From Candidatus Bathyarchaeia archaeon (lineage in GTDB: Archaea > Thermoproteota > Bathyarchaeia > Bathyarchaeales > Bathycorpusculaceae): a DNA stretch of 64,000 bases. The notes below the pieces were generated by a model. That model was given only the letters and a program-made list of their open reading frames with translations, had not been told where the DNA came from and did no database searches. The stretch is from assembly GCA_038883775.1 (NCBI GenBank), contig JAVZLM010000003.1, forward strand, positions 96,001 to 160,000. The letters run 5' to 3'. The translations under genes and the position numbers were made by a program. Positions 48,592 to 64,000 of the stretch are shown here, piece by piece (the stretch's first letter is position 1; each line of letters opens with the position of its first letter).

Positions 48592-49065
48592 TTAGTGGCT
48601 CTTCCCTGGAGCCGCTTTCTTTTCCACCTCTAATTCCCTCACTCTGGTTTCTATGAATTCGGCGACTTTCTCTTGACTATACCTCTTCTCTTCCTCTTGC
48701 TTCCTTAGTTGTTCTCTTATTGTTTCTAAAACTTTGTCCATGTCGAAGGGCTTCACAATGTAAGCGTCTGCTCCCCTGTTCACAGCTTCTATGGCATTCT
48801 GCAGTGTTGGATAACCAGTGATAATGACTTTTCGCATTTTTGGCGTTGTCTCCTTCATTCGTGTTAGGAGTTCTATGCCTTCCATGTCTGGAAGTCTAAT
48901 GTCTATTAGGGCTAAGTTGTAGAATTTTTTCTTTGTCTTTTCTATGGCAGCTTTTGCCGTTTCCGCCGAGTCAACCCAGTATCCTTCTTCTTCGAGGATT
49001 GCTGTTAAAACTTTTCTTATGTTTTCGTCGTCGTCAACAATGAGGATTCTAGCGGTTTCATCCAT
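48592..49065 (-). CDS. Response regulator (receiver domain with short C-terminal tail)
   Basis: ILIVDDD, DIRLPDMEG, ITG, YIVKP. Confidence 0.93.
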   Translation of the reverse strand: MDETARILIVDDDENIRKVLTAILEEEGYWVDSAETAKAAIEKTKKKFYNLALIDIRLPDMEGIELLTRMKETTPKMRKVIITGYPTLQNAIEAVNRGADAYIVKPFDMDKVLETIREQLRKQEEEKRYSQEKVAEFIETRVRELEVEKKAAPGKSH

Positions 49066-52000
49066 ATTTTTTCACCTCCTTCTTTCATTTTTGGCTGGAT
49101 CGGAACGGTTACCGTGAAGGTTGTGCCCTTTCCAAGATCACTTTTTACAGAAATTGAGCCGCCATGGGCTTCTACGAAACGTTTGCATATGGCTAAGCCA
49201 AAGCCCATTCCCTTGGCTTTTGTTGTGAAGAGGGGTGTCCACAGTTTCTCTAAAGTTTGCTTTGGCATGCCGACACCAGTGTCAGTGAAAACCATCTCCA
49301 AATTTTCGCCTACTGCTCTGCTTTTTATGGTTATTTTACCGCCTTTTGGCATAGCTTCAATAGCATTCCTAATCAAGTTTACAAAAACCCTCCTTATCTT
49401 TTCAGTGTCAACCCTAATTTTAGGTTTGTTTTTTGTCAAATCCAATACTTGGACATTTTTCGGAATTTTCACAAGCCCTAAAGCCTCTTTCACCAACGTC
49501 TTTGGAGTGCTTTCAGAAATTTCAAGCTCTATCTCCCTTGAATAATCCAAAAGGTCATTTATTATCTTGTTTGAGTAGGCTATGTTCCTTTCTATTAGGT
49601 CAAGCATGTCCCTAATCTTGTCATTAGCCTCTAGGCTTAAACGCTTCTTCAAATAATATTGCGCCCCAGCAATGCTTGTTAATGGATTGCGAAGGTCATG
49701 CCCCACCATGCCAGCCAATTCGCCAATAACAGCCAACCTTTGGGCTTTAAGCAGTTGTTCTTGAGACTTCTTCAGCTCACGAGTGCGTTCCTCAACTTTT
49801 TGTTCAAGCTGTGAAGCATACATCTCAAGCTGTTTTCTAGCTTCTCTTAGGCTTTCAATGAGTTGGGCGTTTTCAATGATTATTGCAGCTTGGTGCAGGA
49901 AAAGCTCTAAGGGAACGAGAGATTCTCTTGTCGGTTTTCGACCATCCACTGGGTCGTCCATGCTTAGAATGCCAACAATCCTACCCTCTGGAGTGCGAAG
50001 TGGCGCATAAAGCATGTCCTGTGGGTGCCAGTCAACCATGTTATCCTCAGAAAGACGGCTTGGGACAGCATCTATGTGCTTTATTGCTTCTTCTGTTGGC
50101 ATATCTGGTGGAACATGGAAGAAGTGCTCCCTAGCCCACGGATCCCTCCACGGTATGTAGTAGAATTCGCCAATCTTGTATTTCTCAAACTTTGGTCCCA
50201 GGCTTTCCTTCCAAACCTGTCCTGAAACTTTTCTCTCCTTAAGGAGTTTAATTTCTTCCCTTGTTAGGCCTACTGTAATAAGTTCTTTTCTTTCAAGGTT
50301 TTCGTCTACGCGGCCTATTACTACTCTTCTCCATCCAAAATTTTGTATGGTCTTCGCTATTATTTTCAGTTTTTGATGCATATTTTTGGCATGCATGATT
50401 TCAGTTGAGCTTTTCATTAAATTGGTTATTTTTTTGGAGAGAATCATTAGTCTGTCACGTCTTTTTAGATTGCTTATGGCTGTGGCCGCATGCGAAGCCA
50501 ACGTTTCTAATAGTTTCTCGTCTTCCTTATCAAATGCTGCAATTTTTTTACTCTCAACGTTTAAAACTCCTATAACATTCTTTCCCACTTTTATTGGAAC
50601 CGCAAGTTCCGAACGTACTTTCTCTCCACCTCTAACGTAGGTTTTTTCCTTTCTGACATCTGGGACGATGACGGACCGCTTCGTTCTTGCTGCTCTGACG
50701 GTTATGCCTCTTTCTCCATCTAGGGGTAATTTAAGTGATGGAACTTTTGAGTATCCTCTGTAAGCTACCATGCAAAGCATTTTTCCCTTTACAATGAGAA
50801 TGGAAGCGTACTCGAATCCTAACGTTTTTTCCATAGCATCTAAAGTTAGCTTGTAAATTTCATCCATACTTTTTGCCATATTTAGGTTTCTGCCATATTC
50901 ATTTAATGCGGACAATATTTCTCGCCTTTTTAGGTTGCTTAGGGCTATAGCAGCATGAGAAGCCAATATTTCTAATAATTTCCTATCTTCTTTGTCAAAG
51001 GCTGAAAGCTTTCTGCTTTCAACATTCAAAACTCCTAAAACATTCTTTCCAACCTTTATTGGCACTGCAAGTTCTGATAGTACACCTTCTGAACCTTCGC
51101 CGATGAAAGCCTTTTCTTTTCTTACGTCTGGAACTAAAATGGACTTTTTGGTTCTTGCCGCCTTTACGGTTACACCTCTTTCTCCATCCAATGGCAGTTT
51201 TAATGACAGAACTTTTGAGTATCCCCTATGGGCTTTTAGGCAGAGCATTTTTCCTTCTATTATGAAGATGTCAGCGAATTCGAATCCCAATGTTTTTTCC
51301 ATGGCATCCATTGTTAACTTATAAATTTCTTCCATGCTTTTTGCCATGTTCAAGCTTTGGCCGTACTTGTTAAGTGCGGAGAGTCTTTCTTCGAAACGTT
51401 TTCTTTCATTTTCTATTTTTTTCTTTTCTGTTATGTCAAGCAACTGTGCTATGCTGCGTAGTTTGCCACTTTTATCCCGTATTACTGCAGCTTTAATCTC
51501 AACGTTTCTTTTCTCGCCGTCTTTTCGAACTATCTTAAACTCATATCTTGGAGGGATGCACTCCCCCCTCCTTCTTCGAAGATATCTTTCTTCGACAAGT
51601 TTTCTGCTTTCTTCGTCGAGGAAATTCCTAAAGTCTTGTCCAACAATTTCCTCTTTTGGATAACCACTTAAGGCGACAGCCTCATTGTTGGCGTAGATTA
51701 TCTTAAACTTTTCATCTATTAGGAGTATAGTATTGTGGGAGTTTTCAACAATGGAGCGGAAGAGTTCCTCGCTGTTTTTTAGGGCTTCCTCCATCTTCTT
51801 TTGTTCAGTGATGTCTATGGCTATTCCATACTTAACATACTTGTTTTCCAGCCACCTTATGGCTTTGCATGTTACCTTATACCACTTTTTGTTCTTTTGA
51901 TCTTGGTAGTTACGAGTGTAGACTTTTCCAAGGTTTTCTCCGAGGACGTGCTTATTATTGCATGAAGGGCATGGCTGGTTTAGGTTTTCAAAAACCCTAT

Positions 52001-52184
52001 AACATTTTTCGCCTACAATCTCCTGACCGAAAAGCTCTCTGGTTTTGCTATTGGCAAAAAGTACCTCAAACGTTTCTGGATCTATAACATAAACTGCTTC
52101 TTCCATTCCATCGCTAAGGGCGCTCAAACTTTCAAGAACATGTCTAAGCTTTTCTTTAGCGTCCTTTTTCATATCGTAACGCAT
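49017..52184 (-). CDS. Cytoplasmic PAS-PAS-GAF-GAF histidine kinase
   Basis: H-box HDLRNPL, N-box NLIRNA, DTGVG, FTTK..GMGFGL; no TM segment. Confidence 0.93.
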   Translation of the reverse strand: MRYDMKKDAKEKLRHVLESLSALSDGMEEAVYVIDPETFEVLFANSKTRELFGQEIVGEKCYRVFENLNQPCPSCNNKHVLGENLGKVYTRNYQDQKNKKWYKVTCKAIRWLENKYVKYGIAIDITEQKKMEEALKNSEELFRSIVENSHNTILLIDEKFKIIYANNEAVALSGYPKEEIVGQDFRNFLDEESRKLVEERYLRRRRGECIPPRYEFKIVRKDGEKRNVEIKAAVIRDKSGKLRSIAQLLDITEKKKIENERKRFEERLSALNKYGQSLNMAKSMEEIYKLTMDAMEKTLGFEFADIFIIEGKMLCLKAHRGYSKVLSLKLPLDGERGVTVKAARTKKSILVPDVRKEKAFIGEGSEGVLSELAVPIKVGKNVLGVLNVESRKLSAFDKEDRKLLEILASHAAIALSNLKRREILSALNEYGRNLNMAKSMDEIYKLTLDAMEKTLGFEYASILIVKGKMLCMVAYRGYSKVPSLKLPLDGERGITVRAARTKRSVIVPDVRKEKTYVRGGEKVRSELAVPIKVGKNVIGVLNVESKKIAAFDKEDEKLLETLASHAATAISNLKRRDRLMILSKKITNLMKSSTEIMHAKNMHQKLKIIAKTIQNFGWRRVVIGRVDENLERKELITVGLTREEIKLLKERKVSGQVWKESLGPKFEKYKIGEFYYIPWRDPWAREHFFHVPPDMPTEEAIKHIDAVPSRLSEDNMVDWHPQDMLYAPLRTPEGRIVGILSMDDPVDGRKPTRESLVPLELFLHQAAIIIENAQLIESLREARKQLEMYASQLEQKVEERTRELKKSQEQLLKAQRLAVIGELAGMVGHDLRNPLTSIAGAQYYLKKRLSLEANDKIRDMLDLIERNIAYSNKIINDLLDYSREIELEISESTPKTLVKEALGLVKIPKNVQVLDLTKNKPKIRVDTEKIRRVFVNLIRNAIEAMPKGGKITIKSRAVGENLEMVFTDTGVGMPKQTLEKLWTPLFTTKAKGMGFGLAICKRFVEAHGGSISVKSDLGKGTTFTVTVPIQPKMKEGGEKIWMKPLESSLLTTTKT
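50457..51383 (-). repeat. Tandem intragenic duplication of a GAF domain (about 460 bp x2)
   Basis: Two highly similar units LSALN.YG..LNMAKSM.EIYKLT.DAMEKTLGFE...LASHAA.A.SNLKRR. Confidence 0.85.
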
Positions 52185-52501
52185 TCTCCTTTAACCACTA
52201 TTCGCTTCTTCAAATTGTCAACACATTGCAAAAAATCCAAGCCTTCCATTTCTTCAAATTTTAAGCCAAGCTTTTCGTAAAGTCGCTTCACAATAAGCAT
52301 TTCAAGGTATGAGGCGCCAGGTCCAAAGATTCCTTCCAAGGCTTTTGTAAACTCTGTTAGGTTTGTTGGAATCTTTTCCCTTTTTAGGTTGAAGGAAGCC
52401 TCTAAATGGAAGAAAATAGCCTGTTTGGGAGAATCTCCCAAGAGGGATAGGCTCTCTTCAAGGGCTGATAAAAAGATTTTGCTAAAGTTATTTTGAGTCA
52501 A
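52169..52501 (-). CDS. NitrOD5/DUF3227-like small signalling protein
   Basis: ALEESLSLLG...AIFFHLE...F...LEGIFGPGA..LE..IV..LYEKLG. Confidence 0.65.
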   Translation of the reverse strand: MTQNNFSKIFLSALEESLSLLGDSPKQAIFFHLEASFNLKREKIPTNLTEFTKALEGIFGPGASYLEMLIVKRLYEKLGLKFEEMEGLDFLQCVDNLKKRIVVKGECVTI

Positions 52502-52607
52502 AGGGTTTTCCCTCGAGGGATGAATAGGTTTAAAAAGAGATTCATGATGCTTTGATAAAATATTTGTGAACTCTGAATCTGAATTTGAAACCCGACAGCT
52601 TTTGTCA

Positions 52608-52940
52608 TTAAACTTTCTTTTTCTGGAAGCTCTCTTTTGCTGCAGTTACATAATCAAGAAACACGAGTTCTTTGCTTTCGTTCCATTTTAGTGGTTGCCC
52701 AATCTTCTCATACAACTTTTTCATTATTAGAATTTCTATAAAATGGGCACCTAAACCAAAAATTTTTTCGAGTCCATCCGTAAACTCTTCGAGACGATTT
52801 GGAATTTCCTTTTTCGTTATTTTAAATTTGTCTTCAAGGTGATAATAAATTGCTTGTCTAACTGATTCTCCAAGGGAGGCTAAGGCTTCGTCTACGGCTT
52901 CTAGCAAAAGGGTTTCGAAGGCTTCTCTTTTCCTCTTCAA
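52608..52940 (-). CDS. NitrOD5/DUF3227-like small signalling protein (paralogue)
   Basis: AVDEALASLG...AIYYHLE...F..GLEKIFGLGA..IE..IM..LYEKIG. Confidence 0.65.
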   Translation of the reverse strand: MKRKREAFETLLLEAVDEALASLGESVRQAIYYHLEDKFKITKKEIPNRLEEFTDGLEKIFGLGAHFIEILIMKKLYEKIGQPLKWNESKELVFLDYVTAAKESFQKKKV

Positions 52941-53079
52941 TGAGGGGGCTCCTTTTTGGAGAATATTTGTTAACGAGACTTATATGATAATAAAAGGATT
53001 TTTGATTTTTAAATTTAATTATTGATTTCGCTGATTTCGGGTTTAAATCTGATTCAAAATTGGAATTAGACAAAAATTT

Positions 53080-53262
53080 TTAAATTAATTGTTTGCCCAG
53101 CCTATGCATTCTTTCCGTTATGAGGCTTAGTTCTTTTGCATAGTCCATTAAAGCCATCCGTAAGGTTTCGCTTTCGCTTGTTCCAAGACGCCTTGCAAGT
53201 TCGGTTAGGATTTCTTTTTGTTCTTTGCTTAAGACAACTTTCACTATGCATTTTCTGGGCAT
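53080..53262 (-). CDS. CopG-like ribbon-helix-helix regulator
   Basis: VKVVLS...L.ELARRLGTSESETLRMAL; divergent from the virion operon. Confidence 0.8.
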   Translation of the reverse strand: MPRKCIVKVVLSKEQKEILTELARRLGTSESETLRMALMDYAKELSLITERMHRLGKQLI

Positions 53263-53377
53263 CCAACCACTCCCTCAGCCCCTCCTGTTGGTGCTTTTGT
53301 GGGCGTTTTGGTTGTACAATTTGCCTTTTCATTTTCTTCGTATATTAGTTTGGTGTTAGTTGTGTGAGGTTTGCGAA

Positions 53378-54541
53378 ATGCCTTGGGAAATAACCGACCA
53401 GTATATTCGCAGCGGACACCGCAACCCAGAAGAGTTTGAACAAAACAGTTTACGCACAATCACGCTTAGTGAGGATGATGGGATTAAGGCTGTTGTCGGC
53501 AAGCCGAAGGGCAACGAAGGGATGGCTGTTCAAAGCTACCTGTTTGAAATTGCCAAGGGCTGGACCCTTGAAAAAGCTAAGGCATGGTTTGAAAGACATC
53601 AGAAAGGCGAGGACTCTTTCGCCATCAAGGTTTTGGAAAAAATCGTTGACAAACCATTAAAGATTCGCGGCATTGCGCTTAGGGCTGGCATGAGCCGAAA
53701 CCTTAACATTTACACCCCTGAAGAGTTACAGGCCTTTGCTAAGAAGCTTGTTTCTGCGCCCGTTTATGTTGAGCATGTGACTGTTCCAAACGCTGTTGGA
53801 AAAATTGTTAAGGCTGAATGGGATGGCACCAACCTTTGGTATGAAGCCGAAATCTATGATGATGAGATAGCTGAGAAAATTCGCAAAGGCTTAATTGGGC
53901 ATGTAAGCGTAGGCGCAGACTATGAAACCATAGACTTCGTGGATGGAAAAATTCCCCATGGTTTACACAATGCAGAACTAAGCCTTGTAGCTGTGCCAGG
54001 CGTTCCAGAAACAAACATCCAAATCATGGAAAAGCTAAAGCTTAAAGAACAAGAGTTCGAACCCATAATTTCCGGCGAGTATATCCTTGGCTTTTATCAA
54101 GACGTTTCCGCTTTCTTGCCCGAACATTTTAGCACCGTGTGGCTTGACAAAGAAAATGGCATCCTAGCCCTAATCGGAAGATTACGGGCTGAGCCTGAAA
54201 CTCGGAGGGTTCAGAGCATATTCTTCGCTAAAGAGAAGATGTGGAATATAAACAAGATTCGAGATTGGCTTCTTCTGCATCCACATTATATGGCTTCGGC
54301 GGGTACTTCAGCACCTCTACAGACTCCGCTGAAAGAGCCTAAAAATGAGGTTAAAGTTGCCGAAAGTCTCGTAAAAAATTCTAGGGCTATGATACCAGTA
54401 GAAGAAGCCATACGCATGATTCAGAACGTTTTGCCAAGCCCGATGGTGGAGCGAAGCTGGGGTTTGGGTCCGCAGAGGCTTTGCCAAGAACTCCGCGGTG
54501 TCATATTAAACCTTCGTAGGAGGGTGAAATCTGATGGTTAA
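53378..54541 (+). CDS. HK97-type prohead maturation protease flanked by two copies of an unknown domain
   Basis: VYVEH...VGK, GHVSVG, ELSLVAVP; ATG 53378 after GAGGT. Confidence 0.85.
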   Translation: MPWEITDQYIRSGHRNPEEFEQNSLRTITLSEDDGIKAVVGKPKGNEGMAVQSYLFEIAKGWTLEKAKAWFERHQKGEDSFAIKVLEKIVDKPLKIRGIALRAGMSRNLNIYTPEELQAFAKKLVSAPVYVEHVTVPNAVGKIVKAEWDGTNLWYEAEIYDDEIAEKIRKGLIGHVSVGADYETIDFVDGKIPHGLHNAELSLVAVPGVPETNIQIMEKLKLKEQEFEPIISGEYILGFYQDVSAFLPEHFSTVWLDKENGILALIGRLRAEPETRRVQSIFFAKEKMWNINKIRDWLLLHPHYMASAGTSAPLQTPLKEPKNEVKVAESLVKNSRAMIPVEEAIRMIQNVLPSPMVERSWGLGPQRLCQELRGVILNLRRRVKSDG

Positions 54542-54615
54542 AAGTGGAAGTATAGTTTTTGGAGTAAGCCAGGATGAACTGGCTGAAACAAATATGGATT
54601 TGAGGAGTGATTTTT

Positions 54616-55047
54616 ATGGCAGATAACACTGGAAAAACTTGGATGAGCATTGGCGAAACAGACGACCCAAACGCCATAATCGAAACTTTCGTGGCTAACG
54701 CAGCCATAACCAAAGGCGACCCAGTTTACTTAAGCGCTGACGACAAGGTTAGCCCAGCCACAGCAGCCCAAGACTGCATTGGAATAGCCCTAAAAAGTGC
54801 TGCTCAAGGCGACCCTTGTCCAGTCTTGATTCGTGGAAGGGTTAAGGTGAAGGTTGGTGGAGCAGTAACTCGTGGAAAGGCAGTTTATGGCGCTGACTCT
54901 TCAAAAAGAATTCTTCAACTAACAGACCAGTCCGTAAATGAGGGTGGAACAGCCCAATACACCATTTACTATGCCAGAAAATTGGGAGTAGCCCTTGAAT
55001 CCGCTTCGGCTGCAGACGACCTAATCTTCATTTATGTGGAAAGGTGA
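54616..55047 (+). CDS. Capsid decoration/cement protein (DUF2190-like)
   Basis: AAITKGDPV...IGIAL.SAA.GD...V...G and GAVTRG..V...LGVALE duplicated beta motif; sits between protease and capsid. Confidence 0.75.
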   Translation: MADNTGKTWMSIGETDDPNAIIETFVANAAITKGDPVYLSADDKVSPATAAQDCIGIALKSAAQGDPCPVLIRGRVKVKVGGAVTRGKAVYGADSSKRILQLTDQSVNEGGTAQYTIYYARKLGVALESASAADDLIFIYVER

Positions 55048-55052
55048 TTGCT

Positions 55053-56006
55053 ATGCGACCAAAACTTTTTGAAAGCCTCATACACTCCGACCCAGAATTT
55101 AGGCAGCTTATGGAAGAATTAAAGCATAAGGCGGTTACGCATCCCTTTCTCAAGCGTTACTGTGAAGTCGGCATTAAAGAACAGTTGTTCAGCGACATGA
55201 CCGGCGCCTTGGGACGCATGCACGACACCCTTGTTGAAGCGGCAAACCCTGAAATGATAGGTAGAGAAATCATAACAGTTAAACCAACAACAGAAGCCAT
55301 GGAGCGCTTTCCGCTTGATGAGAAGACTATTGCGTATCGTTATGCCGAAGGCGCCTATACCAGGCTTAGCGGCAAGAAAATCAGCACGGTTGACGTTTAC
55401 ACAAATATTATTGCTGAAGCCTCTGAAGAGTGGACGAGGGAGTTTTTGGAAGATGCCACATGGAACGTTATGGAAAGCATGACCGAAAAGGTTGGAAGAG
55501 CCCTGGGCGAGGCGGAAACAAACAAAATACTAGAATTGTACGGCTCTATTGCAAATGCGGATTTGGCTGGCGGAGCTCCCATAGACAATGGTGGAAACGC
55601 CATAAACTGGTCCGGCGTGCTAAAACTTCATAACGCTGTTAGAGGCGAAAATTGGCGCCCAACAGTTTTAGCCGTTAACGAAATCCAATTGCACCAGCTT
55701 TTAAGCGACGACAAATTCATCCATGCCCAATACTTACCCTCAGAACAAGTGGACTTAGAGCGTGGCGTTATCGGCAGCGTCCTCGGAATGAAGGTTTTAG
55801 CCAGCACTTTGGTGCCTAACGGAACAGCCTACGCCATAGACACCCGTGTGGCTGCGGTTATGCTCTTGCGAAGAGACATAACCGTCGAAGACTGGGAAGA
55901 CCCAAAAAGTGGCAAGTTCGGCGTTAGAGCAACAACACGATTCGGCTTAGGCGTCCTAAGAAGCAAGGCAGTTGCAAAAATGGTCAACATAAGCACTTCG
56001 CTGTAA
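55053..56006 (+). CDS. HK97-fold major capsid protein
   Basis: AEG E-loop, TREFLEDA.W, spine helix, GVIGSVLGMKVLAS..VP.GTAY.ID, RFGLGV...AV. Confidence 0.88.
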   Translation: MRPKLFESLIHSDPEFRQLMEELKHKAVTHPFLKRYCEVGIKEQLFSDMTGALGRMHDTLVEAANPEMIGREIITVKPTTEAMERFPLDEKTIAYRYAEGAYTRLSGKKISTVDVYTNIIAEASEEWTREFLEDATWNVMESMTEKVGRALGEAETNKILELYGSIANADLAGGAPIDNGGNAINWSGVLKLHNAVRGENWRPTVLAVNEIQLHQLLSDDKFIHAQYLPSEQVDLERGVIGSVLGMKVLASTLVPNGTAYAIDTRVAAVMLLRRDITVEDWEDPKSGKFGVRATTRFGLGVLRSKAVAKMVNISTSL

Positions 56007-56034
56007 CCATAAAAGCGAATAAGGCTAGGTTAAA

Positions 56035-56289
56035 ATGTTAAAGTTTGAAGGCAAATGCCCTTCCTGCGGAAAAACGCATTATTCAAACCGCAAGGATGAC
56101 ATTGTTGTCTGCGACTGCTATAGGCTTTGTCCATTATGCGGAGCTGAAATGGAGCCTTACCCTTCAGACTTAGCACCCAACACTTATGCGGCGGATGGCA
56201 AAAGAGACTTAGCCATTCTAATGGTTTGTTCCCACCATTCTCCCCCATTTTTTAGCACCAGAAAACCTGTGGAGGTTGTTTGCACATGA
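56035..56289 (+). CDS. Small Cys-rich zinc-finger protein
   Basis: CPSC...CDC...CPLC...CSHH. Confidence 0.7.
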   Translation: MLKFEGKCPSCGKTHYSNRKDDIVVCDCYRLCPLCGAEMEPYPSDLAPNTYAADGKRDLAILMVCSHHSPPFFSTRKPVEVVCT

Positions 56290-56528
56290 GAAATTTGCGG
56301 GATAGATTACATTTAGCCAAAACAGTATTAAAGGAGCTTAGTAGGCAGCCACTTTGCAGAACAGAGCTTGAGAAGAGAACTGTTAAAAAGTTTGGAACCC
56401 ACGCCACTTTTGAAGGCATATTCCACTATCTTGTTCAGAATGGTTATGTGCAGAAGAGCGAGCAGAAGCATCGGGCTCCTTACGTGATTACTGAGAAAGG
56501 TGTTAAACTTTTGGAGGGGTTGGAGTGA
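56286..56528 (+). CDS. Winged-helix DNA-binding protein
   Basis: YLVQNGYV...YVITEKG..LL; ATGA overlap with the upstream gene. Confidence 0.75.
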   Translation: MRNLRDRLHLAKTVLKELSRQPLCRTELEKRTVKKFGTHATFEGIFHYLVQNGYVQKSEQKHRAPYVITEKGVKLLEGLE

Positions 56529-57742
56529 ACAAAATTTTGAAGCGTCTAATTGAGGCTTTTTCACTTAAAGCCCGAAGCGGTTACACTTATCCGCAATCAT
56601 CAACTGTTTATGAAACTCCAAGCATACCGCTTAGCGACGTGATAAAGCTTTATGAGCGAGACCCCACATGTAAGGCAAGCGTTGACTTGTTGGCTGCATC
56701 CGCCGTTGGCATGGGCTTTTACACGACTGTTAATGAGGCGTATGAGCGGGCTGAAGAAGCGAAAAGGGTTGTGGACAAGTTTAACGAAAATGTTAATTTG
56801 GATGCGCTTCTCTGCGACATGGCGCGAATCTTAATTGCTTGTGGAAACGAGTTTTGGCTTAAGATTACTCCTGAACGCCTAACGGAACTGCATAGGCTTC
56901 CAGTGGACGCTGTGGAACGCATTGAACAAACCTACATTCAAGATGGCGCATTAAGGCTTCCCTACAAGGTTGAAGGCTATAAGCTTAGGCAAAGTTACGG
57001 CGGCGAAAGCCTAAAGCCCGAAGCCATAATCCACTGGAGAATAAACCATATTGGCTTTTCAAGTTTCGGAACAGGCGTCTTACAAGTGCTCTTGCACTCG
57101 CTTACGTTTCAGTCTGATAGGCGTCCAGCCTATGCTTGGATGAAAGCAAAAATTGAGCGGATAATGCCAAAAATTTTTGAAAAGTATGCGGGACCAGACG
57201 TTTTGGCTCTGCTGGAAAGGGCGGACGAAGCAACAATCCAAAAGTTTGAGAAAGCCATAAAAAGCCGAGGCGAAGAAGGCGCCTGGCTTTTCTACAGCGG
57301 AAAAGGAGACATAAAACCGTTAACGCTTGACCCGAGAGCCCGCTTCGAATACTACATTGAGCACATAATAAACCAGTTCTATCTTGGCTGCGAAACGCCA
57401 CTACCACGCCTTTTCAGTACGCCGGGCTTTACTGAAGCCTCTGCCAAAGCAGCCCTAGACCTCCAAAGCATGCTCATCAAGCCTATTCAGCGATACATTA
57501 AGCGGCAAGTTGAACGCGAAATCTTTAACCCAGTTTTGGCTCAAGCCGGCTTAAACCCTGCTGAGGCGCAGGTTCGCTTAAACTGGGGAAGTGAGAAGGT
57601 GCCTGAAATTGTTATGGCTGACATGCTTAAGGCTGCAGAGTTGGGACTTATTCGTCAAGAAGAGTTTCGCAAGAACGCTGTGAAATTTGGTTGGCAGCTT
57701 TGGGAAATGCCTGAAACCTCCATGGAAAGCGCCACAAAATGA
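56525..57742 (+). CDS. Phage portal protein
   Basis: YERDP..KASVD..A...VG.G, GNEFW, IIHWR......FG; about 400 aa; module context. Confidence 0.82.
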   Translation: MNKILKRLIEAFSLKARSGYTYPQSSTVYETPSIPLSDVIKLYERDPTCKASVDLLAASAVGMGFYTTVNEAYERAEEAKRVVDKFNENVNLDALLCDMARILIACGNEFWLKITPERLTELHRLPVDAVERIEQTYIQDGALRLPYKVEGYKLRQSYGGESLKPEAIIHWRINHIGFSSFGTGVLQVLLHSLTFQSDRRPAYAWMKAKIERIMPKIFEKYAGPDVLALLERADEATIQKFEKAIKSRGEEGAWLFYSGKGDIKPLTLDPRARFEYYIEHIINQFYLGCETPLPRLFSTPGFTEASAKAALDLQSMLIKPIQRYIKRQVEREIFNPVLAQAGLNPAEAQVRLNWGSEKVPEIVMADMLKAAELGLIRQEEFRKNAVKFGWQLWEMPETSMESATK

Positions 57743-57837
57743 AGCTCTTTTTCTCCTTTCTCCTCACGGATTCAAATATCGTATGCGCTTTCTGGAGGCG
57801 GGAAACAAATTAAAAGCCTAAAAAGGGAGGTGAAAGA

Positions 57838-58077
57838 ATGAATGTGTTAAACATAGGCTTGGGAGTTTGCGCCGCCCTAATCTACGCTTTCTTGGGGTAT
57901 GCAGCACAAGATAAACCATTCAATTGGAATAAGTTTCTGCGAACCGTTGCCATCGGCACATTTTCAGCCCTTGGGTTGGATATGACTGGATTGACCTTCG
58001 ACGTTTACACAGCCTTGGTTGGTCCAACAGCCATAACGGTTTGGTTGCAGAAACTTGTTGACACCGCAAAGCCCTAA
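57838..58077 (+). CDS. Small multi-TM protein, holin-like
   Basis: 79 aa, 2-3 TMs, PFNWNKFLRT amphipathic loop, strong RBS GGGAGGTG. Confidence 0.5.
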   Translation: MNVLNIGLGVCAALIYAFLGYAAQDKPFNWNKFLRTVAIGTFSALGLDMTGLTFDVYTALVGPTAITVWLQKLVDTAKP

Positions 58078-58080
58078 CGG

Positions 58081-58092
58081 CCTCTTTTTTTT
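58081..58092 (+). terminator. Oligo-T archaeal terminator candidate
   Basis: CCTCTTTTTTTT directly after the holin-like stop. Confidence 0.45.
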
Positions 58093-58133
58093 AAATTGGA
58101 TTTCCGCAAGTTATAAAAGCTGAATCAAAGAAA

Positions 58134-59810
58134 ATGGTGGCGATGCCTATGAAAACAAAATATTTTTTGGTTCTAATCCTAACTGCTTTGCTGTCTGCCA
58201 TGCTCCTCTATGGGTTTTATACCGTTGAAGTCAAAGCGCCAGATGGCGTAGACCAGCCACTTTCAAAAATTTATGAAATAAAAATGCTTTGGAACAATTC
58301 TATGAGCGTATATGACGTGGCAGTTTCAAAAGACGGCAATTATATAGCCGCTGTGAACGAGACTGGCTTGTACTATTTTGAATGGAACATTTCAACCCCA
58401 AAATGGTGGTATCCAGCAACAACAACGACGCTTATGTCTGTGGCCATATCCGCTGACGGCGAATATGTGGTTACGGGCAGCAATGATGGGTATCTCCGTT
58501 ACTTCAACAATTCCCGTGCAACAACTGGTGAGCGCTTAACTCCCACATGGACAAGCATGTGGCTTTTGGGACCCGTGGAAAGGGGCACATTAGACATGTC
58601 AGATGACGGAGAATATATTGTAGGAGGTGGCACGGGACCAAATGTGTGGTATTACGCTGGGTGCACCAGCAGATATGGCGAAGACGAACATTACACATGG
58701 GGTAATTGGCTACCTGTAAATGATATACGAGCCGTCGACATGTCTCCAGATGGCAAATATGTGGCTGTAGGAGGGGAAAACCGTAGCGATTTGCATAATG
58801 GTTTTGTAGCCTTTTACGAAGATGCAAATACCGCATCAGGATACTATGATCCCATTTGGATTGCTCATAGCGCATTAAATTATAGTGGCTGTTACGTAGT
58901 GGATATTGAAGTTTCTGATGACGGTTATGCTGTTGCGGCAGTAACCAACTATGCGACAACTCTCCACTATTGGGCAAACGCCACAAACTTGACAGGCGAC
59001 CCAGAACCTTCATGGAACCATTATGAATCATTTGTCTGCGTAGACATAAGCTCTGACAGCAACGAGGTTATAGCTGGCTCCGATGACCTATACCATGGAG
59101 GATTGTATTTCTGGTCTAATGCAAGGACTTTGTCGGGGTGGATAAGTGAGGACTGGCATAGCCTCAATAGTCAGATATTTGATGTTGCCATAAGTGATGA
59201 TGGCGAGTTAATATGTGCCGCCGCCCGTTTAGGAGTTGCTTCCGAGTATAAAGCGTACTTCCTTAAGGGTAATGGCGAAGTGATAGAAGAATTTGATTTA
59301 CTCCAATTAAGTCCATTGGTTTCTATGTCTGGAAATGGCATTATAACGGCAGTGGCGGGTCCTGGCTATGATAGCCTTTACGTTTTCCAAACTCTAGTGG
59401 ATATTACTCCGCCTTTGATAGAGAATGTGCATCAGCAACCAGCTAACGACAGTGTTTATCCAGAGGATGAGGTTATGGTTTATGCTAATGTTACCGATGA
59501 CCTAAGCGGAGTAAAACAGGTAACGCTAAACTACACTTACACTAATGCCACTGGAACATGGAATGGAACGGTCATCATGGATAATCTTGAAGGAAACCTC
59601 TACAACGGCACAATACCAGCCCTTCCCTACTGCACAAACGTAACCTACATAATCATAGCTGAAGACAACTTCAACAACACAATCACAACCCAAGATTTGG
59701 GACAAGAATACAAGTATCACGTAATTCCAGAATTCTCGTTGCAGCTAATATTTCCAATACTTGCAGCATCCACGATGTTTGCAATTCTGATTCGCAAAAG
59801 AAAACGTTAA
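58134..59810 (+). CDS. Secreted beta-propeller surface protein with Ig-like domain and PEF-CTERM
   Basis: Signal peptide, repeated V.(I/M)S.DG.Y blades, VIPEF + TM + RKRKR. Confidence 0.8.
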   Translation: MVAMPMKTKYFLVLILTALLSAMLLYGFYTVEVKAPDGVDQPLSKIYEIKMLWNNSMSVYDVAVSKDGNYIAAVNETGLYYFEWNISTPKWWYPATTTTLMSVAISADGEYVVTGSNDGYLRYFNNSRATTGERLTPTWTSMWLLGPVERGTLDMSDDGEYIVGGGTGPNVWYYAGCTSRYGEDEHYTWGNWLPVNDIRAVDMSPDGKYVAVGGENRSDLHNGFVAFYEDANTASGYYDPIWIAHSALNYSGCYVVDIEVSDDGYAVAAVTNYATTLHYWANATNLTGDPEPSWNHYESFVCVDISSDSNEVIAGSDDLYHGGLYFWSNARTLSGWISEDWHSLNSQIFDVAISDDGELICAAARLGVASEYKAYFLKGNGEVIEEFDLLQLSPLVSMSGNGIITAVAGPGYDSLYVFQTLVDITPPLIENVHQQPANDSVYPEDEVMVYANVTDDLSGVKQVTLNYTYTNATGTWNGTVIMDNLEGNLYNGTIPALPYCTNVTYIIIAEDNFNNTITTQDLGQEYKYHVIPEFSLQLIFPILAASTMFAILIRKRKR

Positions 59811-59841
59811 AGGCAATTAAAGATAGCAAAGCACCCAATTT

Positions 59842-60069
59842 TTATTGTTGTTTTGGCTCTTGCCACTTCTCGATGATTAACTTGTCGTCTCCAAGCTTAA
59901 AACTCACTTTAACAGCAATAGAATCCGTGCCTCTCTTTGTTTTTGTGAATTCTTTGAATGGAAACATGCTGTCTTGAGCCAAATCAAGCGGTAAATAAAT
60001 CAAGTATTTGCCGTCTTTTCTTCTGAACAAGCGTCCTTTCCCCTCATTAACCATACGTCTCACTCCCAA
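59842..60069 (-). CDS. Small AbrB/SpoVT-like DNA-binding protein
   Basis: GKYLIYLP.DL......PF...KLIIEK swapped-hairpin pattern. Confidence 0.55.
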   Translation of the reverse strand: MGVRRMVNEGKGRLFRRKDGKYLIYLPLDLAQDSMFPFKEFTKTKRGTDSIAVKVSFKLGDDKLIIEKWQEPKQQ

Positions 60070-60154
60070 TTAATTCATATCAGACGGAATTGATTAGCAC
60101 AGAAATTATTTAAATCTTGTTCTTTAATGAAAACATTACTGGTTAAGTTAACCC

Positions 60155-62308
60155 GTGGAGAAGAACATGTTGAAAAGGAGAGTTATATTCGTTTTAGTCG
60201 CGTCTTTGCTTCTTGACTCCCTAATATTACGGTTTCAAGTTTCTCCCGTTTCCAGTTGGGGTAATGGTGGTTATAGTGATAATCCTTCCAACCCAAAATA
60301 TGGGACTCACGATTGGATTGCAGAGCATGCTTTGGATTGGCTACCAAGGGCGGAGAAATGGTTTATTGTTAAGAATCTTGCGGCTTATCTTTATGGCACT
60401 GAATTGCCAGACAATGGCACGATTCTGTATGGTATAGGCGACACTGGTAAGCATCACGTTTACTATTTCAGTAATGGTTCGTTGCAAGATGATGCTTCTG
60501 CAAAGAGGGCAAGAGAGGAATACGATAAGGCTTTTGAACTTTTCAAGAGTGGAGATTTAGCTAATGCCTCCTTAAGGCTTGGCGTCATGACCCATTACAT
60601 TGCTGATTTGGCAGTTTTCGGTCACGTGATGGGTTCCGGCACGGATTGGGGAGCCGAAGTACATCATAGTGATTACGAAAATTATGTGCTTACAAGAACA
60701 GACGCTTATAATGACGAATTCAATGTTTTTCTTAGCTTTGATGGTGAGTTAAGCCAAATTTCCGCTTATGATGCCGCACTTGCGCTTGCTTATGATACAA
60801 CATTTGACTTGGACGGGGATTTAACGTGTGTCTGGATGGACCAAAACTACAATTGGAGCGATACAACTTTTAAGAACCGTTGCGGAGAATCCCTAAACTT
60901 AGCTGTAAACTTGATCGCTGATGTTTTGCACACGTTTTATTTGGAAATGCAAGATGTGGCGCATTTTATTGATGTTCCCTTCCACTACCAAGACGTTGAA
61001 TATTATTGTGGTCCTGCATGTCTTGAAATGGTTTTCGACTATTATGGAGAAGACATAAATCAATCGGAAATAGCGGATGTCGCAAGAACTTTTCCATACG
61101 AGACTTTTACTGATGAATTACGAAGGGCTGCCCACTTCAGCAGCATCAGCATATCCATGGGCGCTGAAATTCCAGACTACAACATTACTGGCTATACTTT
61201 ACGCAGTTTAGGCTACGCAGCCTTCGAAGCGCATAATATGAATTTAAACCAACTTAAACACTACATCGATCAAAACAAACCGCTAATTCTGCTCATGTGG
61301 TATAGCGAAGCCCATGTTTACGGTCATTATCGTGTTGTGACAGGTTACAATGAAACACACATTTTCATGCATGACCCTTGGGTATGGCTTGGGAAATATG
61401 GCGGTCCAAACATTGCGCTTAATTACACTTTATTTTTGGATCTTTGGTCTTACTCCGGCTACTGGGCGCTTTATACTTTGCCATGGATCATAAATGTCTC
61501 AGCACCAACTTATATCAGACCTGAAAAACCTTTCCAAGTAAACGTTACAATCACTTATCCAAAACCGCTTCCAAACGCCTTAAACGATTATGATGCAACT
61601 TCATGTAATGCAACCATAATATTGCCTCAAAATCTAAGCTTAGTTGCTGGAGAGACCCCAAAGAAAACGGTTAGTTCAGGTTTTTTGGAGGCTGGAGCCA
61701 GCACCTCAGTTAATTGGACTTTGGTAGCAGATGATTATGGAGTGTACGCGATTGGCGTTGAGGTTGAGGGTCTGGTTTCGGGCAGCGTTTGGCCTCATGG
61801 AGATTATCCCGCCTACAATTATAATGATAGAATTGGCGCAAAAGCCAACTTCACAATAGAATTTAGGGAAGACAGCCATGCCCCAATTTTAACAAACCTT
61901 ATCAGATTTCCAAGCGGAGATGTGCAACCAGACCAAGAAGTGAAAATTTCAGTCAACGTCACAGACCTTGAAAGTGGAGTAAAAAATGTCACCCTATTCT
62001 ACACAACAAATGATTGGGTTACATGGGAAAACAAAACAATGAACCTAAACCAAACAACAAAATTGTATGAAGCCACAATCCGTGGACAGCCTGCGGAAAC
62101 ATGGGTTAAATTCAAAATAGTTGCTTATGACTATTTAGAAAATAATGCAACCCTTGACGGAACAACGCCGCACTGCATGTACTACGTAATTCCAGAATTT
62201 CCATCCCTTACGGCTTTATTACTCTCCACAATGCTCACAATGCTTTTCAGTGTCTACTTAAGAAGAAAAGAACAAAAACTTCCAAATGCTTTTGTAGACT
62301 GTAATTAA
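60155..62308 (+). CDS. Secreted Zn-dependent phospholipase C/S1-P1-like + C39-like peptidase multidomain protein with PEF-CTERM
   Basis: W...THDWIA, PD, HYIAD...H, H..YE; Q....CGPA, GHYRVVTGY, HDPW; VIPEF + TM + RRK. Confidence 0.8.
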   Translation: MEKNMLKRRVIFVLVASLLLDSLILRFQVSPVSSWGNGGYSDNPSNPKYGTHDWIAEHALDWLPRAEKWFIVKNLAAYLYGTELPDNGTILYGIGDTGKHHVYYFSNGSLQDDASAKRAREEYDKAFELFKSGDLANASLRLGVMTHYIADLAVFGHVMGSGTDWGAEVHHSDYENYVLTRTDAYNDEFNVFLSFDGELSQISAYDAALALAYDTTFDLDGDLTCVWMDQNYNWSDTTFKNRCGESLNLAVNLIADVLHTFYLEMQDVAHFIDVPFHYQDVEYYCGPACLEMVFDYYGEDINQSEIADVARTFPYETFTDELRRAAHFSSISISMGAEIPDYNITGYTLRSLGYAAFEAHNMNLNQLKHYIDQNKPLILLMWYSEAHVYGHYRVVTGYNETHIFMHDPWVWLGKYGGPNIALNYTLFLDLWSYSGYWALYTLPWIINVSAPTYIRPEKPFQVNVTITYPKPLPNALNDYDATSCNATIILPQNLSLVAGETPKKTVSSGFLEAGASTSVNWTLVADDYGVYAIGVEVEGLVSGSVWPHGDYPAYNYNDRIGAKANFTIEFREDSHAPILTNLIRFPSGDVQPDQEVKISVNVTDLESGVKNVTLFYTTNDWVTWENKTMNLNQTTKLYEATIRGQPAETWVKFKIVAYDYLENNATLDGTTPHCMYYVIPEFPSLTALLLSTMLTMLFSVYLRRKEQKLPNAFVDCN

Positions 62309-62412
62309 TCTTTTCCTTTCTGCTTTTTTTCAAAATAATTTTAAATTTTCCTTTTTTATTGTGAAAATTGTTTAAATTTTCCTATTTTCCTTTTTTGTTT
62401 GAGGTTAAGGGT

Positions 62413-62766
62413 TTGGCAAGCGTTTCACCCGATGATGTCCGTGACGTGCTTAATCTCAGTTCGGCTGATGTTCCAGACGCTAAAATTGTTAAGATGATTA
62501 AGCGAGCTGAGGTTACATTGGAGCTTGAGCTCGGAAAAGAAATCGATTATGCCGATTGCACTGAAGCGGAGAAGGAGTTCATAACCGTTTTAGCGGCTAT
62601 TTATGCCATTTGCTATTTGACTGGTGGTTCAGCGGTTGGCTTAAGCTTCAGCCTTGGAGACCAAAACATAAGCGTACTAAGCAAGGCTCCGCCCTTGGAT
62701 GTTTTGCAAGCTGAGCTTGAAAGGATTTTGAATGGCTTAAAAGCGCCTCATGTGGGGTATGCCTAA
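62413..62766 (+). CDS. Head-tail adaptor/connector-like protein
   Basis: SPDDVRDVL...IKRAE helical pattern and SFSLGD..IS; TTG 62413 after GAGGT; module context. Confidence 0.6.
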   Translation: MASVSPDDVRDVLNLSSADVPDAKIVKMIKRAEVTLELELGKEIDYADCTEAEKEFITVLAAIYAICYLTGGSAVGLSFSLGDQNISVLSKAPPLDVLQAELERILNGLKAPHVGYA

Positions 62767-64000
62767 ATGTTCGATGAAGCCTTGAACGTTTATTTGCAGT
62801 TTATCTTGGACAATGCACCATACTTTTATTATGTGCCAGGCTCTGGCGTTTCTGGTGAGCGGGGCGTGGCGGCAGCCGCTTTCGCTATAGACTTTCTTTA
62901 TGAAGCCTATTCTGATAGCCGCTGCATAGCAAAGAAAAGCGAGGTTTATGACAAGATTGTTTCTTTGGCTGATTGGATTTTAACACAACAATGTACGGAC
63001 AATGCCAAAAACGCTTATGGCGGCTTTAAAAGTAGCGAGACAAGCGATTATTACTATGCCGTTGATACTTGCCGTGTTATCCCGTCCCTTTTGAGGGCTT
63101 ACGCGCTGACCAAGGATTTGGATTATTTAAGTGCTGCAAGGCTTGCTGGCTCGACGTTTTTGAAGGCTATGCAGGATAGACAGAGTTATGGCGGTTTTGC
63201 AAAAGCTGTTACCATTAATGGAGATTGGCTTCTGCAGTTGGATATTGAATGTCTTTACGGGCTTTTGGGTTTGAAAATGCTTGCTGAAACCTATGACACC
63301 GATAATGCCAACACTTATCAAGACATGATTGTTAAGCTTGTGGATTTTCTCCGAAGCGGTTTTGAAAACTTTTGGCTATACTATGACCCAGCAGACAATA
63401 AGTGGCATAGAGTTGGAGTGGAAGAAGACCAAGTCTATGATGACTCTTTCGCTTATGCCCTGTTAGGACTTTACAGTTATGAGGGTTGGAGCCCCACAGT
63501 TCAAAGGGTTTATGAAACTTTAAACGCCATTGGACCAAGCGCAGATTATGCTGGATACAACCCAAGTGTTTGTTGGGCTGGCTACATAGATGTTGTCAGG
63601 CGGAAGGCTGCATGCGATTACTATGATAGCGTCTCATGCGGCGTATTGCATGACATTCGTGCAGCAAGGGATAAGCCAAGCCTCGAGTTGAGCGTTCAGA
63701 TTTTGGATAGGCATTATTCTGATTTTATGTTTTGGGGAGTAAAATTCAAAGACTTGAGCCATGTGGAAAACAAGCAAAGTATCATTACGGTTTCTTGGCT
63801 TGGACTTTTGCTTTTGCGTTATTCGCCTAAGCATACGCCTTTTAAGGCAATTTTGGAAAAGTATGGCGAAAACCTAACCTTATACCCAATTTTAGAGGTT
63901 AGCGAAACAGTCTCTTATGGTGAAGGAATAACGCTTAAAGCCATGGTTAAGGTTGAAAACCCAACAGAAATCATTATTGAGCCAGGCTATGCAATAACAG
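62767..64000 (+). CDS. Alpha/alpha-toroid enzyme-like protein with a putative head-closure domain; 3'-truncated and missing from the ORF track
   Basis: ATG directly after the adaptor stop; manual translation is open to the window end (MFDEALNVYLQF...ADWILTQQCTD...YGGF...IEPGYAIT). Confidence 0.75.
   Translation, partial: MFDEALNVYLQFILDNAPYFYYVPGSGVSGERGVAAAAFAIDFLYEAYSDSRCIAKKSEVYDKIVSLADWILTQQCTDNAKNAYGGFKSSETSDYYYAVDTCRVIPSLLRAYALTKDLDYLSAARLAGSTFLKAMQDRQSYGGFAKAVTINGDWLLQLDIECLYGLLGLKMLAETYDTDNANTYQDMIVKLVDFLRSGFENFWLYYDPADNKWHRVGVEEDQVYDDSFAYALLGLYSYEGWSPTVQRVYETLNAIGPSADYAGYNPSVCWAGYIDVVRRKAACDYYDSVSCGVLHDIRAARDKPSLELSVQILDRHYSDFMFWGVKFKDLSHVENKQSIITVSWLGLLLLRYSPKHTPFKAILEKYGENLTLYPILEVSETVSYGEGITLKAMVKVENPTEIIIEPGYAIT

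Follow-up and report, generated by a model that had tools for sequence, protein, structure and literature searches.

An integrase-less Caudoviricetes-type provirus apparently fixed in Bathyarchaeia chromosomes, a candidate gene transfer agent-like particle system

A stretch of 64,000 nucleotides from a Candidatus Bathyarchaeia archaeon genome (here G000), covering positions 96001-160000 of contig C3 (180,396 nt) and hereafter called the window, holds in its last 11 kb the left part of a virus-like element with head and tail genes. With moderate confidence, we interpret this locus as the left part of an integrase-less, Caudoviricetes-derived provirus fixed between a response regulator, histidine kinase and NitrOD5 gene cluster (RR/HK/NitrOD5) on one side and MscL and tRNA genes on the other. 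This level of confidence applies to the explanation as a whole, including a presumed benefit to or control by the cell and the presumed assembly of particles. The comparisons presented below give firm support to the narrower claim that the element is a complete, integrase-less and chromosomally fixed member of its provirus family, largely inherited with the host and under selection in many lineages. As an archaeal particle system resembling gene transfer agents (GTAs), known here from its genes alone, it is a serious but unproven candidate.

A provirus family with and without integrase

A search with the capsid protein yielded 49 IMG/VR contigs at 67-88% identity and 117 stretches in species-representative genomes, 80 of which were kept. 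The titles of the kept stretches name Bathyarchaeia, Bathyarchaeota or Bathyarchaeales in 79 cases and a "Thermoproteota archaeon" in one. The family shares a core gene order, which runs RHH, p393, decoration protein (deco), major capsid protein (MCP), a zinc-ribbon-like protein (Znf), a winged helix-turn-helix protein (wHTH), portal and a variable slot, continues with p132, p462, p320, tube, p157, gp10-like, p180 and tail531, and is completed further on by p131, p76, p117, the large terminase TerL and an ABC/GNAT protein. Sorted by their upstream DNA, the 129 loci comprise 49 with the RR/HK/NitrOD5 flank (flank-linked), 32 with other DNA and 48 with too little sequence. A capsid and portal tree with 74 rows gathers 41 of its 42 flank-linked rows into a single clade, which counts 46 rows and has 100% support; the flank label requires 4 changes on this tree, against 24 when shuffled. 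Copies of this clade at the RR/HK/NitrOD5 flank are called resident, and family copies outside it non-resident.

A tyrosine integrase is found 25-30 kb downstream of the capsid gene in five non-resident copies (G066:C37, G061:C4, G079:C4, G079:C3, and G084:C1 at 824 kb), and these share their genomes (G061, G066, G079, G084) with resident copies. When PF00589 was searched around eleven resident copies (G000, G042, G043, G046, G050, G055, G061, G066, G075, G079 and G084), one of them in a closed genome, no associated integrase was found in any. The sole nearby integrase, in G046, is 7.3 kb off, abuts a tRNA-Leu and stands behind genes 68-88% identical to contig C8 of G000. Pfam scans of the element's open reading frames (ORFs) of at least 100 aa returned no recombinase family, serine recombinases not having been searched genome-wide. 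A split SSV-type integrase was considered and rejected, the weak match at C3:141236-141544 being NrdR. Exact 13-mers and blastn with 7-nt words revealed no attachment-site (att) repeat longer than 15 nt linking the element ends; the matches are at chance level, and the best end-to-end repeat, of 15 nt, lies within the kinase gene.

By these comparisons, the resident lineage is shown to be one clade of a larger provirus family, other members of which keep their integrase. The resident element thus appears to have no means of self-mobilisation, and its head, tail and packaging genes are phage-derived, as would be expected of a GTA. Elsewhere in G000 there are five tyrosine-integrase genes (C3:352-1608, C3:3654-4529, C11:1780-2928, C4:31525-32655 and C14:2286-2579), so other integrated elements exist in this genome; three of the five share 45-49% identity, and several are located close to contig ends.

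Descent with the host chromosome

Retention of the element by vertical descent, mostly with the host chromosome and across many species, is supported by locus, tree and divergence comparisons. The capsid gene adjoins the orthologous kinase in G001, G004, G012 and G022, and G001 is collinear with G000 from the flank through m147 and MscL. Among 36 resident-clade genomes, distances computed from deco, MCP and portal correlate with RpoB distances with a Mantel r of 0.84, a value reached in none of 2000 permutations. The element and RpoB trees have 17 of 33 splits in common; 2000 label shuffles gave 0.24 on average and at most 3. Between G000 and G001, synonymous divergence (dS) is 0.38-2.6 for element genes and 0.60-1.04 for five flank genes.

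Several results weigh against strict vertical inheritance. Of four RpoB clades submitted to approximately unbiased (AU) tests, the element data reject three (p = 1e-90, 1.5e-5 and 0.008) and not the fourth (0.27); the tested clades were picked after the trees had been seen, and RpoB is only one gene, located some 43 kb off on the same contig. These rejections suggest continued exchange between the element and a gene pool of viruses or of the population. TerL has been swapped for a type 35-38% identical in G012, G059, G061, G062 and G069, and capsid dS is 2-5 times below RpoB dS in 3 of 14 pairs. Of 41 relatives, 17 yielded the capsid, as did 9 of the 24 family genomes, a shortfall partly due to assembly breaks, as in G002, whose contig breaks off within the decoration gene. 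Four family genomes (G021, G018, G005 and G031) carry the RR/HK/NitrOD5 genes without the element. At these four loci the RHH gene was not found; their far side is not syntenic with the MscL side of G000, and the exact borders are not readable there. In G000 itself, contig C3 stops 1.8 kb past the element.

An earlier note on the window, made from the sequence alone, had proposed a vertically kept system rather than a transient provirus. This holds, given the same locus in many species, the co-divergence with RpoB, the flank-equal dS and the lack of an integrase in all eleven copies; the grounds that the note gave, namely an absent terminase, an odd gene order and a host insertion, fail. The analyses it proposed, a search for capsid prevalence and synteny, a comparison with the RpoB tree and an estimate of selection, yielded a shared locus, co-divergence and purifying selection. 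It had also named a patchy distribution and incongruence with the host as marks of an ordinary provirus. Patchiness is partly seen, in the capsid counts given above and in at least four genomes with the flank genes only, and on incongruence the evidence is divided between the shared splits, which speak for the host tree, and the AU tests, which reject three of the four host clades tested.

Selection, decay and split loci

The ratio of nonsynonymous to synonymous divergence (dN/dS) between G000 and G001 ranges from 0.021 to 0.272 over 25 element genes, with 0.042 for the capsid, 0.067 for the portal, 0.061 for the tube and 0.066 for TerL. Each of 14 near-sister pairs from across the resident clade gives a capsid dN/dS within 0.02-0.14. 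The counts of intact genes in flank-linked species loci are 40 of 41 for the capsid, 39 of 41 for decoration, all 40 for wHTH, and 34 of the 38 with sequence for the portal.

Decay is also frequent, and counts against a maintained system. G012 presents an in-frame stop in the capsid gene, a frameshift in the portal gene and a deletion of the tail-tube region, and L124 has stops in both capsid and portal genes. TerL is truncated in G050 and deleted in G080, there accompanied by a frameshifted ABC/GNAT gene; L099, L107 and L093 have lost tail and/or portal genes by deletion; and in G007 and G019 only remnants of RHH and p393 are left.

Three species, G084 (a closed genome), G079 and G077, share one inversion that splits the element. 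Their head-tail genes lie on one strand, and p131, p76, p117, TerL and ABC/GNAT lie 26 kb off on the opposite strand. The halves are separated by RHH, NitrOD5 and the response regulator, together with some 21 kb of cellular DNA whose products include an alcohol dehydrogenase, an MscS channel, a GH5 glycosidase, a cytidylyltransferase and a GHMP kinase. A single inversion with one breakpoint inside the element accounts for the arrangement in all three. When the three are compared, every scored head, tail and packaging gene has a dN/dS within 0.02-0.33, at dS of 0.28-1.6 and RpoB dS of 0.43-0.57. If the inversion was single and preceded the divergence of the three species, selection persisted on an element unable to leave the chromosome whole. 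The dN/dS values show structural and packaging genes held by purifying selection, also in the three species with a split element. A gene for an 866-aa protein with a tubulin-like N-domain (PF13809, E 8e-13) is likewise present between the halves, at L199:2121-4718 (G084:C1:1474179-1476776).

G048 presents a second, independent rearrangement, with the head module and a half comprising tail, packaging, m147 and MscL on separate contigs; both halves now adjoin homologues of genes that are neighbours in G000, at about 26 kb of contig C4.

A conserved region before the head operon

About 70 nt upstream of p393 are nearly invariant in 21 aligned resident copies, whose synonymous sites are near saturation. 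The region holds a 23-nt motif. With up to 3 mismatches allowed, 40 of the 49 flank-linked copies have it, and the remaining nine have a more diverged version at that position. Five rows labelled "other" inside the resident clade have the motif too; none of the 26 non-resident copies does, and the G000 genome contains it a single time. The adjoining TATATTA stretch is probably a TATA box and GTGAGG probably a ribosome-binding site. A shared promoter for the three operons was rejected, the packaging and tail operons being without the head motif. The clade-specific motif and the adjacency to RR/HK/NitrOD5 are only suggestive of regulation of production by the host, and the adjacency hint is weakened by the existence of RR/HK/NitrOD5 genes without the element.

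Gene content of the element

The features of the element and its left flank are presented in Table 1. By profile, an HK97-type MCP, a portal and TerL are all present, which places the element among HK97-type Caudoviricetes. A tailocin, that is, tail genes without capsid, portal and terminase, is ruled out, as all three are present and selected.

Table 1. Features of the element in G000 and of its left host flank. Positions with a prefix refer to contig C3 or locus L002, and all others to the window.
Feature	Position	Strand	Evidence or remark
Host flank outside element	48592..52940	-	Pfam
Response regulator	48592-49065	-	Pfam
PAS/GAF histidine kinase	49017-52184	-	Pfam
Two NitrOD5-like small proteins	52169-52501, 52608-52940	-	weak matches, E 0.007, below cut-off
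RHH (CopG-type), leftmost element gene, divergent from head operon	53080..53262	-	PF01402 E 3e-6
Promoter-proximal region	53263..53377	+	23-nt motif 53314-53336, then TATATTA stretch, GTGAGG before start codon
p393, candidate prohead protease/scaffold	53360..54541	+	start probably 53378; no Pfam match
Head decoration/cement protein (deco)	54607..55047	+	PF09956 E 5e-15; phrog_673 E 1.5e-16
HK97-type MCP	55044..56006	+	PF05065 E 1.7e-7; phrog_267 E 1.2e-14
Zn-ribbon-like Cys-rich protein (Znf)	56035-56289	+	weak matches only
wHTH protein	56280-56528	+	PF14947 E 8e-5, below cut-off
Portal	56525..57742	+	PF04860 E 5.9e-7, below cut-off; phrog_12 E 7e-7
79-aa protein, two or three hydrophobic stretches	57838..58077	+	no Pfam/PHROG match
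Variable cargo slot	58134..62308	+	between portal and p132
WD40/DUF7743 PEF-CTERM protein	58134-59810	+	Pfam; C-terminus
Small ORF in variable slot	59842-60069	-	
PLC/C39-peptidase/DUF7743 PEF-CTERM protein	60155-62308	+	Pfam; C-terminus
p132, tail operon start	62368-62766	+	
p462	62767 to C3:160155, 155 nt beyond window	+	PF06662 E 1e-5
Tail tube	C3:161117-161971	+	PF18906 E 3e-18
gp10-like neck protein	C3:162371-162862	+	phrog_5 E 3e-23
tail531, YqbQ-like tail protein	C3:163404-164999	+	
Hel308-like helicase	C3:170181-172313		phrog_6819 E 1.7e-65
TerL, large terminase	C3:173340-174776		PF03237 E 3e-18, PF17289; phrog_2 E 2e-42
ABC-ATPase/GNAT fusion, 477 aa	C3:174773-176206 (L002:14377-15810)		phrog_293, phrog_11143
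m147, 147 aa	C3:178146-178589 (L002:17750-18193)		weak RHH match; right end of element

The RHH gene accompanies the head module in both IMG/VR and genome loci. For p393, no Pfam match was found at E 0.01 or better, and a profile search against PDB sequences was also negative. Among named clusters in the ESM Atlas, those nearest to it bear Peptidase_S78 (scores 0.94 and 0.93; 186 and 183 shared features), and this language-model likeness, the sole lead, makes p393 a candidate prohead protease. An alignment of 19 sequences contains invariant Ser and His columns. The protein presents a hinge near residues 326-333, where some genomes (G001, G002) have an insertion of about 460 nt, and 11 of 57 near-full-length homologues have one in-frame stop; the hinge stops and insertions could reflect two genes, or a read-through or shifted product. 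Znf and wHTH keep their position family-wide, Znf being missing in 4 of 41 flank-linked loci. The 79-aa membrane protein after the portal is probably holin-like, judging by its hydrophobic stretches.

Between p462 and the tube lies p320, and beyond tail531 come a fibre-like and a DUF2341 protein. The region between the fibre and packaging genes contains cargo whose presence varies among the copies, namely an AbiEii-like nucleotidyltransferase and a VapBC-like PIN/RHH pair (L002:7548-8654; C3:167944-169050). Three small ORFs separate the helicase from TerL, and a small ORF upstream of TerL could be the small terminase. The ABC/GNAT gene is translationally coupled to TerL and is kept in the packaging module of the whole family. 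The right-end gene m147 accompanies the capsid gene in other genomes; in one subclade (L078-L085, L089, L139) it lies between RHH and p393 in the opposite orientation, and G004 has seven matches to it.

Much of what the earlier note had read in the head region is borne out. Its head ORFs are in place, with Pfam and PHROG profiles agreeing on decoration, capsid and portal; the small RHH gene is followed by the gap of about 115 nt that it described (115 nt exactly if the start is the ATG at 53378); and the tight coupling is seen in overlaps of 4 nt (deco/MCP), 10 nt (Znf/wHTH) and 4 nt (wHTH/portal). The absence of an integrase and of att sites also stands, with PF00589 finding nothing near and no repeat above 15 nt between the ends. 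Its "protease" has the cluster likeness in its favour and no Pfam match. Other statements require revision. The module was thought to be without terminase and tail because the window ends too early: the downstream flank holds both on contig C3, with neither an integrase nor an att repeat, and the gene set read there makes this an element of about 29.5 kb (about C3:149080-178589) rather than a head module alone. The order of portal after capsid is real, and since integrase-bearing relatives have the same order, it is a family trait and no sign of domestication. The two PEF-CTERM genes are correctly named, their products ending in IPEF, a hydrophobic stretch and a basic tail, which we take to be the PEF-CTERM pattern. 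They are not a host insertion, given the interval between portal and p132 is the family's variable slot, which ranges from 3 to 7243 nt and is filled by a gene with a PLC-type N-domain in 27 of 74 family loci. Finally, of the replication module that the note had named as a mark of an ordinary provirus, G000 holds the Hel308-like helicase, which is not conserved (a 192-aa fragment in G001, no match in L199-L203); no polymerase, primase, MCM or Orc1 match was found among the scanned element ORFs.

Chromosomal surroundings

The cellular genes to the left of the element encode NrdD, NrdD activase, NrdR, an MFS transporter, ChrB, a GNAT protein, the response regulator, the PAS/GAF kinase and the two NitrOD5-like proteins. 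To the right of m147 are MscL, tRNA-Ile and tRNA-Arg, and an Rfam scan of the right end found the two tRNAs and nothing else. The stretch from MscL to tRNA-Ile (L002:18568-19132; C3:about 178964-179528), also negative in Rfam, is 65-77% identical in relatives as a translated match and is non-coding, given that stop codons occur throughout. G+C content is 44-47% in the head operon (53001-59000 of the window) and 38-42% in its flanks; the former value resembles that of the RNA-polymerase region at 10-18 kb. A k-mer scan found no CRISPR array in G000. Exact-match unitigs of run X1 have a similar word depth in the flank (7.6-12.6) and in the element (10.5-13.8), a depth that cannot rank parts, and one unitig spans the NitrOD5/RHH junction.

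Interpretation and alternative explanations

In the explanation that we favour, the cell, and not an autonomous virus, would benefit from or control expression from the conserved head-operon promoter. Capsids would be built by the p393 protease/scaffold, the decoration protein, the capsid protein and the portal, loaded by TerL and then fitted with tails; release may be aided by the small membrane protein and perhaps by the PLC/C39 surface enzyme. Such a scheme would parallel GTAs and PBSX-type defective prophages. The GTA-like reading is favoured by split loci that are still selected and by the derived, conserved promoter, and is weakened by frequent decay and continued exchange with viruses. 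A more specific version remains tentative, and we regard it as rather doubtful: a genetically defined archaeal GTA, in which a virus like Bathyarchaeia tailed provirus 1 (BATPV1) would have been captured in the ancestor of a family-level hot-spring and sediment clade of Bathyarchaeia, lost its integrase and gained a new conserved promoter beside a two-component system, and would now supply the host with particles that carry chromosomal DNA between cells.

The element could instead be an ordinary temperate virus, autonomous and under selection on its own behalf, that re-enters the same site by an unrecognised route. It might do so with a recombinase that integrase-bearing relatives supply in trans or with an Xer-type enzyme of the host, or else recombine homologously at the conserved flanks. 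The gene set of G000 is indeed complete, with TerL, a possible small terminase and a helicase, and integrase-bearing relatives reside in four of the same genomes (G061, G066, G079, G084); the terminase swaps and the AU rejections also fit such a virus, as does the classification of 49 related contigs as viral in IMG/VR. However, many of those contigs bear the same host flank, and are hence chromosomal pieces; the helicase is not conserved; and neither an associated integrase in the eleven copies nor an att repeat was found. Given, in addition, the 17 of 33 splits shared with the host tree, dS equal to that of the flanks, and purifying selection in three species where the element cannot exit whole, we consider an autonomous virus unlikely. 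Decay without function, the G000 copy being intact merely because a grounded provirus decays slowly, is suggested by the many decayed or truncated copies and the patchy distribution, but agrees poorly with dN/dS of 0.02-0.27 accumulated over dS of about 0.4-1 or more, with 40 of 41 intact capsid genes, and with a non-coding motif kept despite near-saturated synonymous sites; it is accordingly quite improbable. A still slighter probability is given to selection on the head module alone, for instance as a capsid-derived compartment or a helper for other elements, with tail and packaging genes as dispensable passengers. Head genes are the best preserved, the conserved motif precedes the head operon only, and RHH to portal are kept with tail and/or TerL missing nearby in G045, G066 and L099. 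Yet tail and packaging genes, where present, have equally low dN/dS, the genomes are incomplete metagenome-assembled ones, and the "missing" half of G048 merely lies at another locus, so that absence nearby is no proof of loss.

Significance

To our knowledge, archaeal GTAs are known mainly as observed particles, to which no gene set has been assigned. If the more specific version given above is true, the element would be the first Thermoproteota GTA-like system with a known gene set, and would represent a route of gene exchange in an uncultured and globally abundant archaeal class. Comparison with the still-mobile sisters may date the steps of domestication: loss of the integrase, a new promoter, toleration of splitting and loss of modules in some hosts. 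The analysis provides a concrete gene list for metatranscriptomes, metaproteomes and virus-size fractions of hot-spring samples. It also suggests that IMG/VR and provirus mining count vertically inherited chromosomal loci as viruses, many of the 49 contigs carrying host flank, so estimates of active Bathyarchaeia viruses would be inflated.

Comparison with known systems

PBSX of Bacillus is a chromosomally fixed phage-like element that produces tailed particles with host DNA, has a contractile tail and is under SOS control. The Bathyarchaeia element is likened to PBSX-type prophages by description and not by homology. RcGTA-type GTAs of Alphaproteobacteria are integrase-less, phage-derived head-tail-terminase clusters that descend with the host, are maintained by purifying selection, have disappeared from some lineages and can have genes at more than one locus, all of which resembles the present element by description and not by sequence. 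RcGTA spans about 15 kb, whereas the Bathyarchaeia element spans about 29.5 kb and is still mosaic with circulating viruses. Unlike in these bacterial systems, packaging of host DNA, host regulation and transfer are hypothetical for the Bathyarchaeia element. Descriptions of RcGTA-type GTAs are available, in part, in PMC5721377 and PMC10883770.

A close described relative is BATPV1 (JAAKEZ010000002_pro, 33,358 bp; available text of PMC11705971), a member of the same virus family. Its capsid is 73% identical (locus L137), and it shares the core order p393-deco-MCP-portal-p132-p462-p320-tube-p157-gp10like-p180-tail531-p131-p76. In contrast to the resident element, it has its capsid gene followed, some 27 kb downstream, by a tyrosine integrase (G066:C37:272869), and bears an integrase N-terminal fragment at its other end; it also lies at another chromosomal site, falls outside the resident clade and is without the head-promoter motif. 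Fuxivirus, of about 32 kb and from hot springs, and Kunpengvirus are also tailed viruses of Bathyarchaeia; according to the available text of PMC10848311, the former has the order TerL-portal-...-MCP-tube and the latter its own integrase, PolB and MCM, which sets both apart by description. The same text contains none of the terms "two-component", "histidine kinase" and "PEF-CTERM" and describes no fixed element at this locus. A literature search, PMC13573593 included, returned no report of this resident lineage, or of a fixed element or GTA gene set in Bathyarchaeia, although supplements of PMC11705971 and PMC10848311 may list some of the loci.

The GTA idea in Thermoproteota has so far been speculation on single loci: for the thaumarchaeal head-tail loci Nvie-Pro1, NCAV2-Pro1 and CalSub-Pro, which have full morphogenesis modules and no att sites or replication genes, GTA-like domestication was raised as a possibility by the authors of PMC6563490. 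Like the present element, these loci are archaeal (Thermoproteota), hold a Caudoviricetes-like morphogenesis module and have no att sites. In the available text of PMC6563490 they are single and mutually divergent, with no comparative test reported, whereas the Bathyarchaeia element is represented by at least 41 species copies and can be judged by co-phylogeny, dN/dS, split loci and integrase-bearing sisters.

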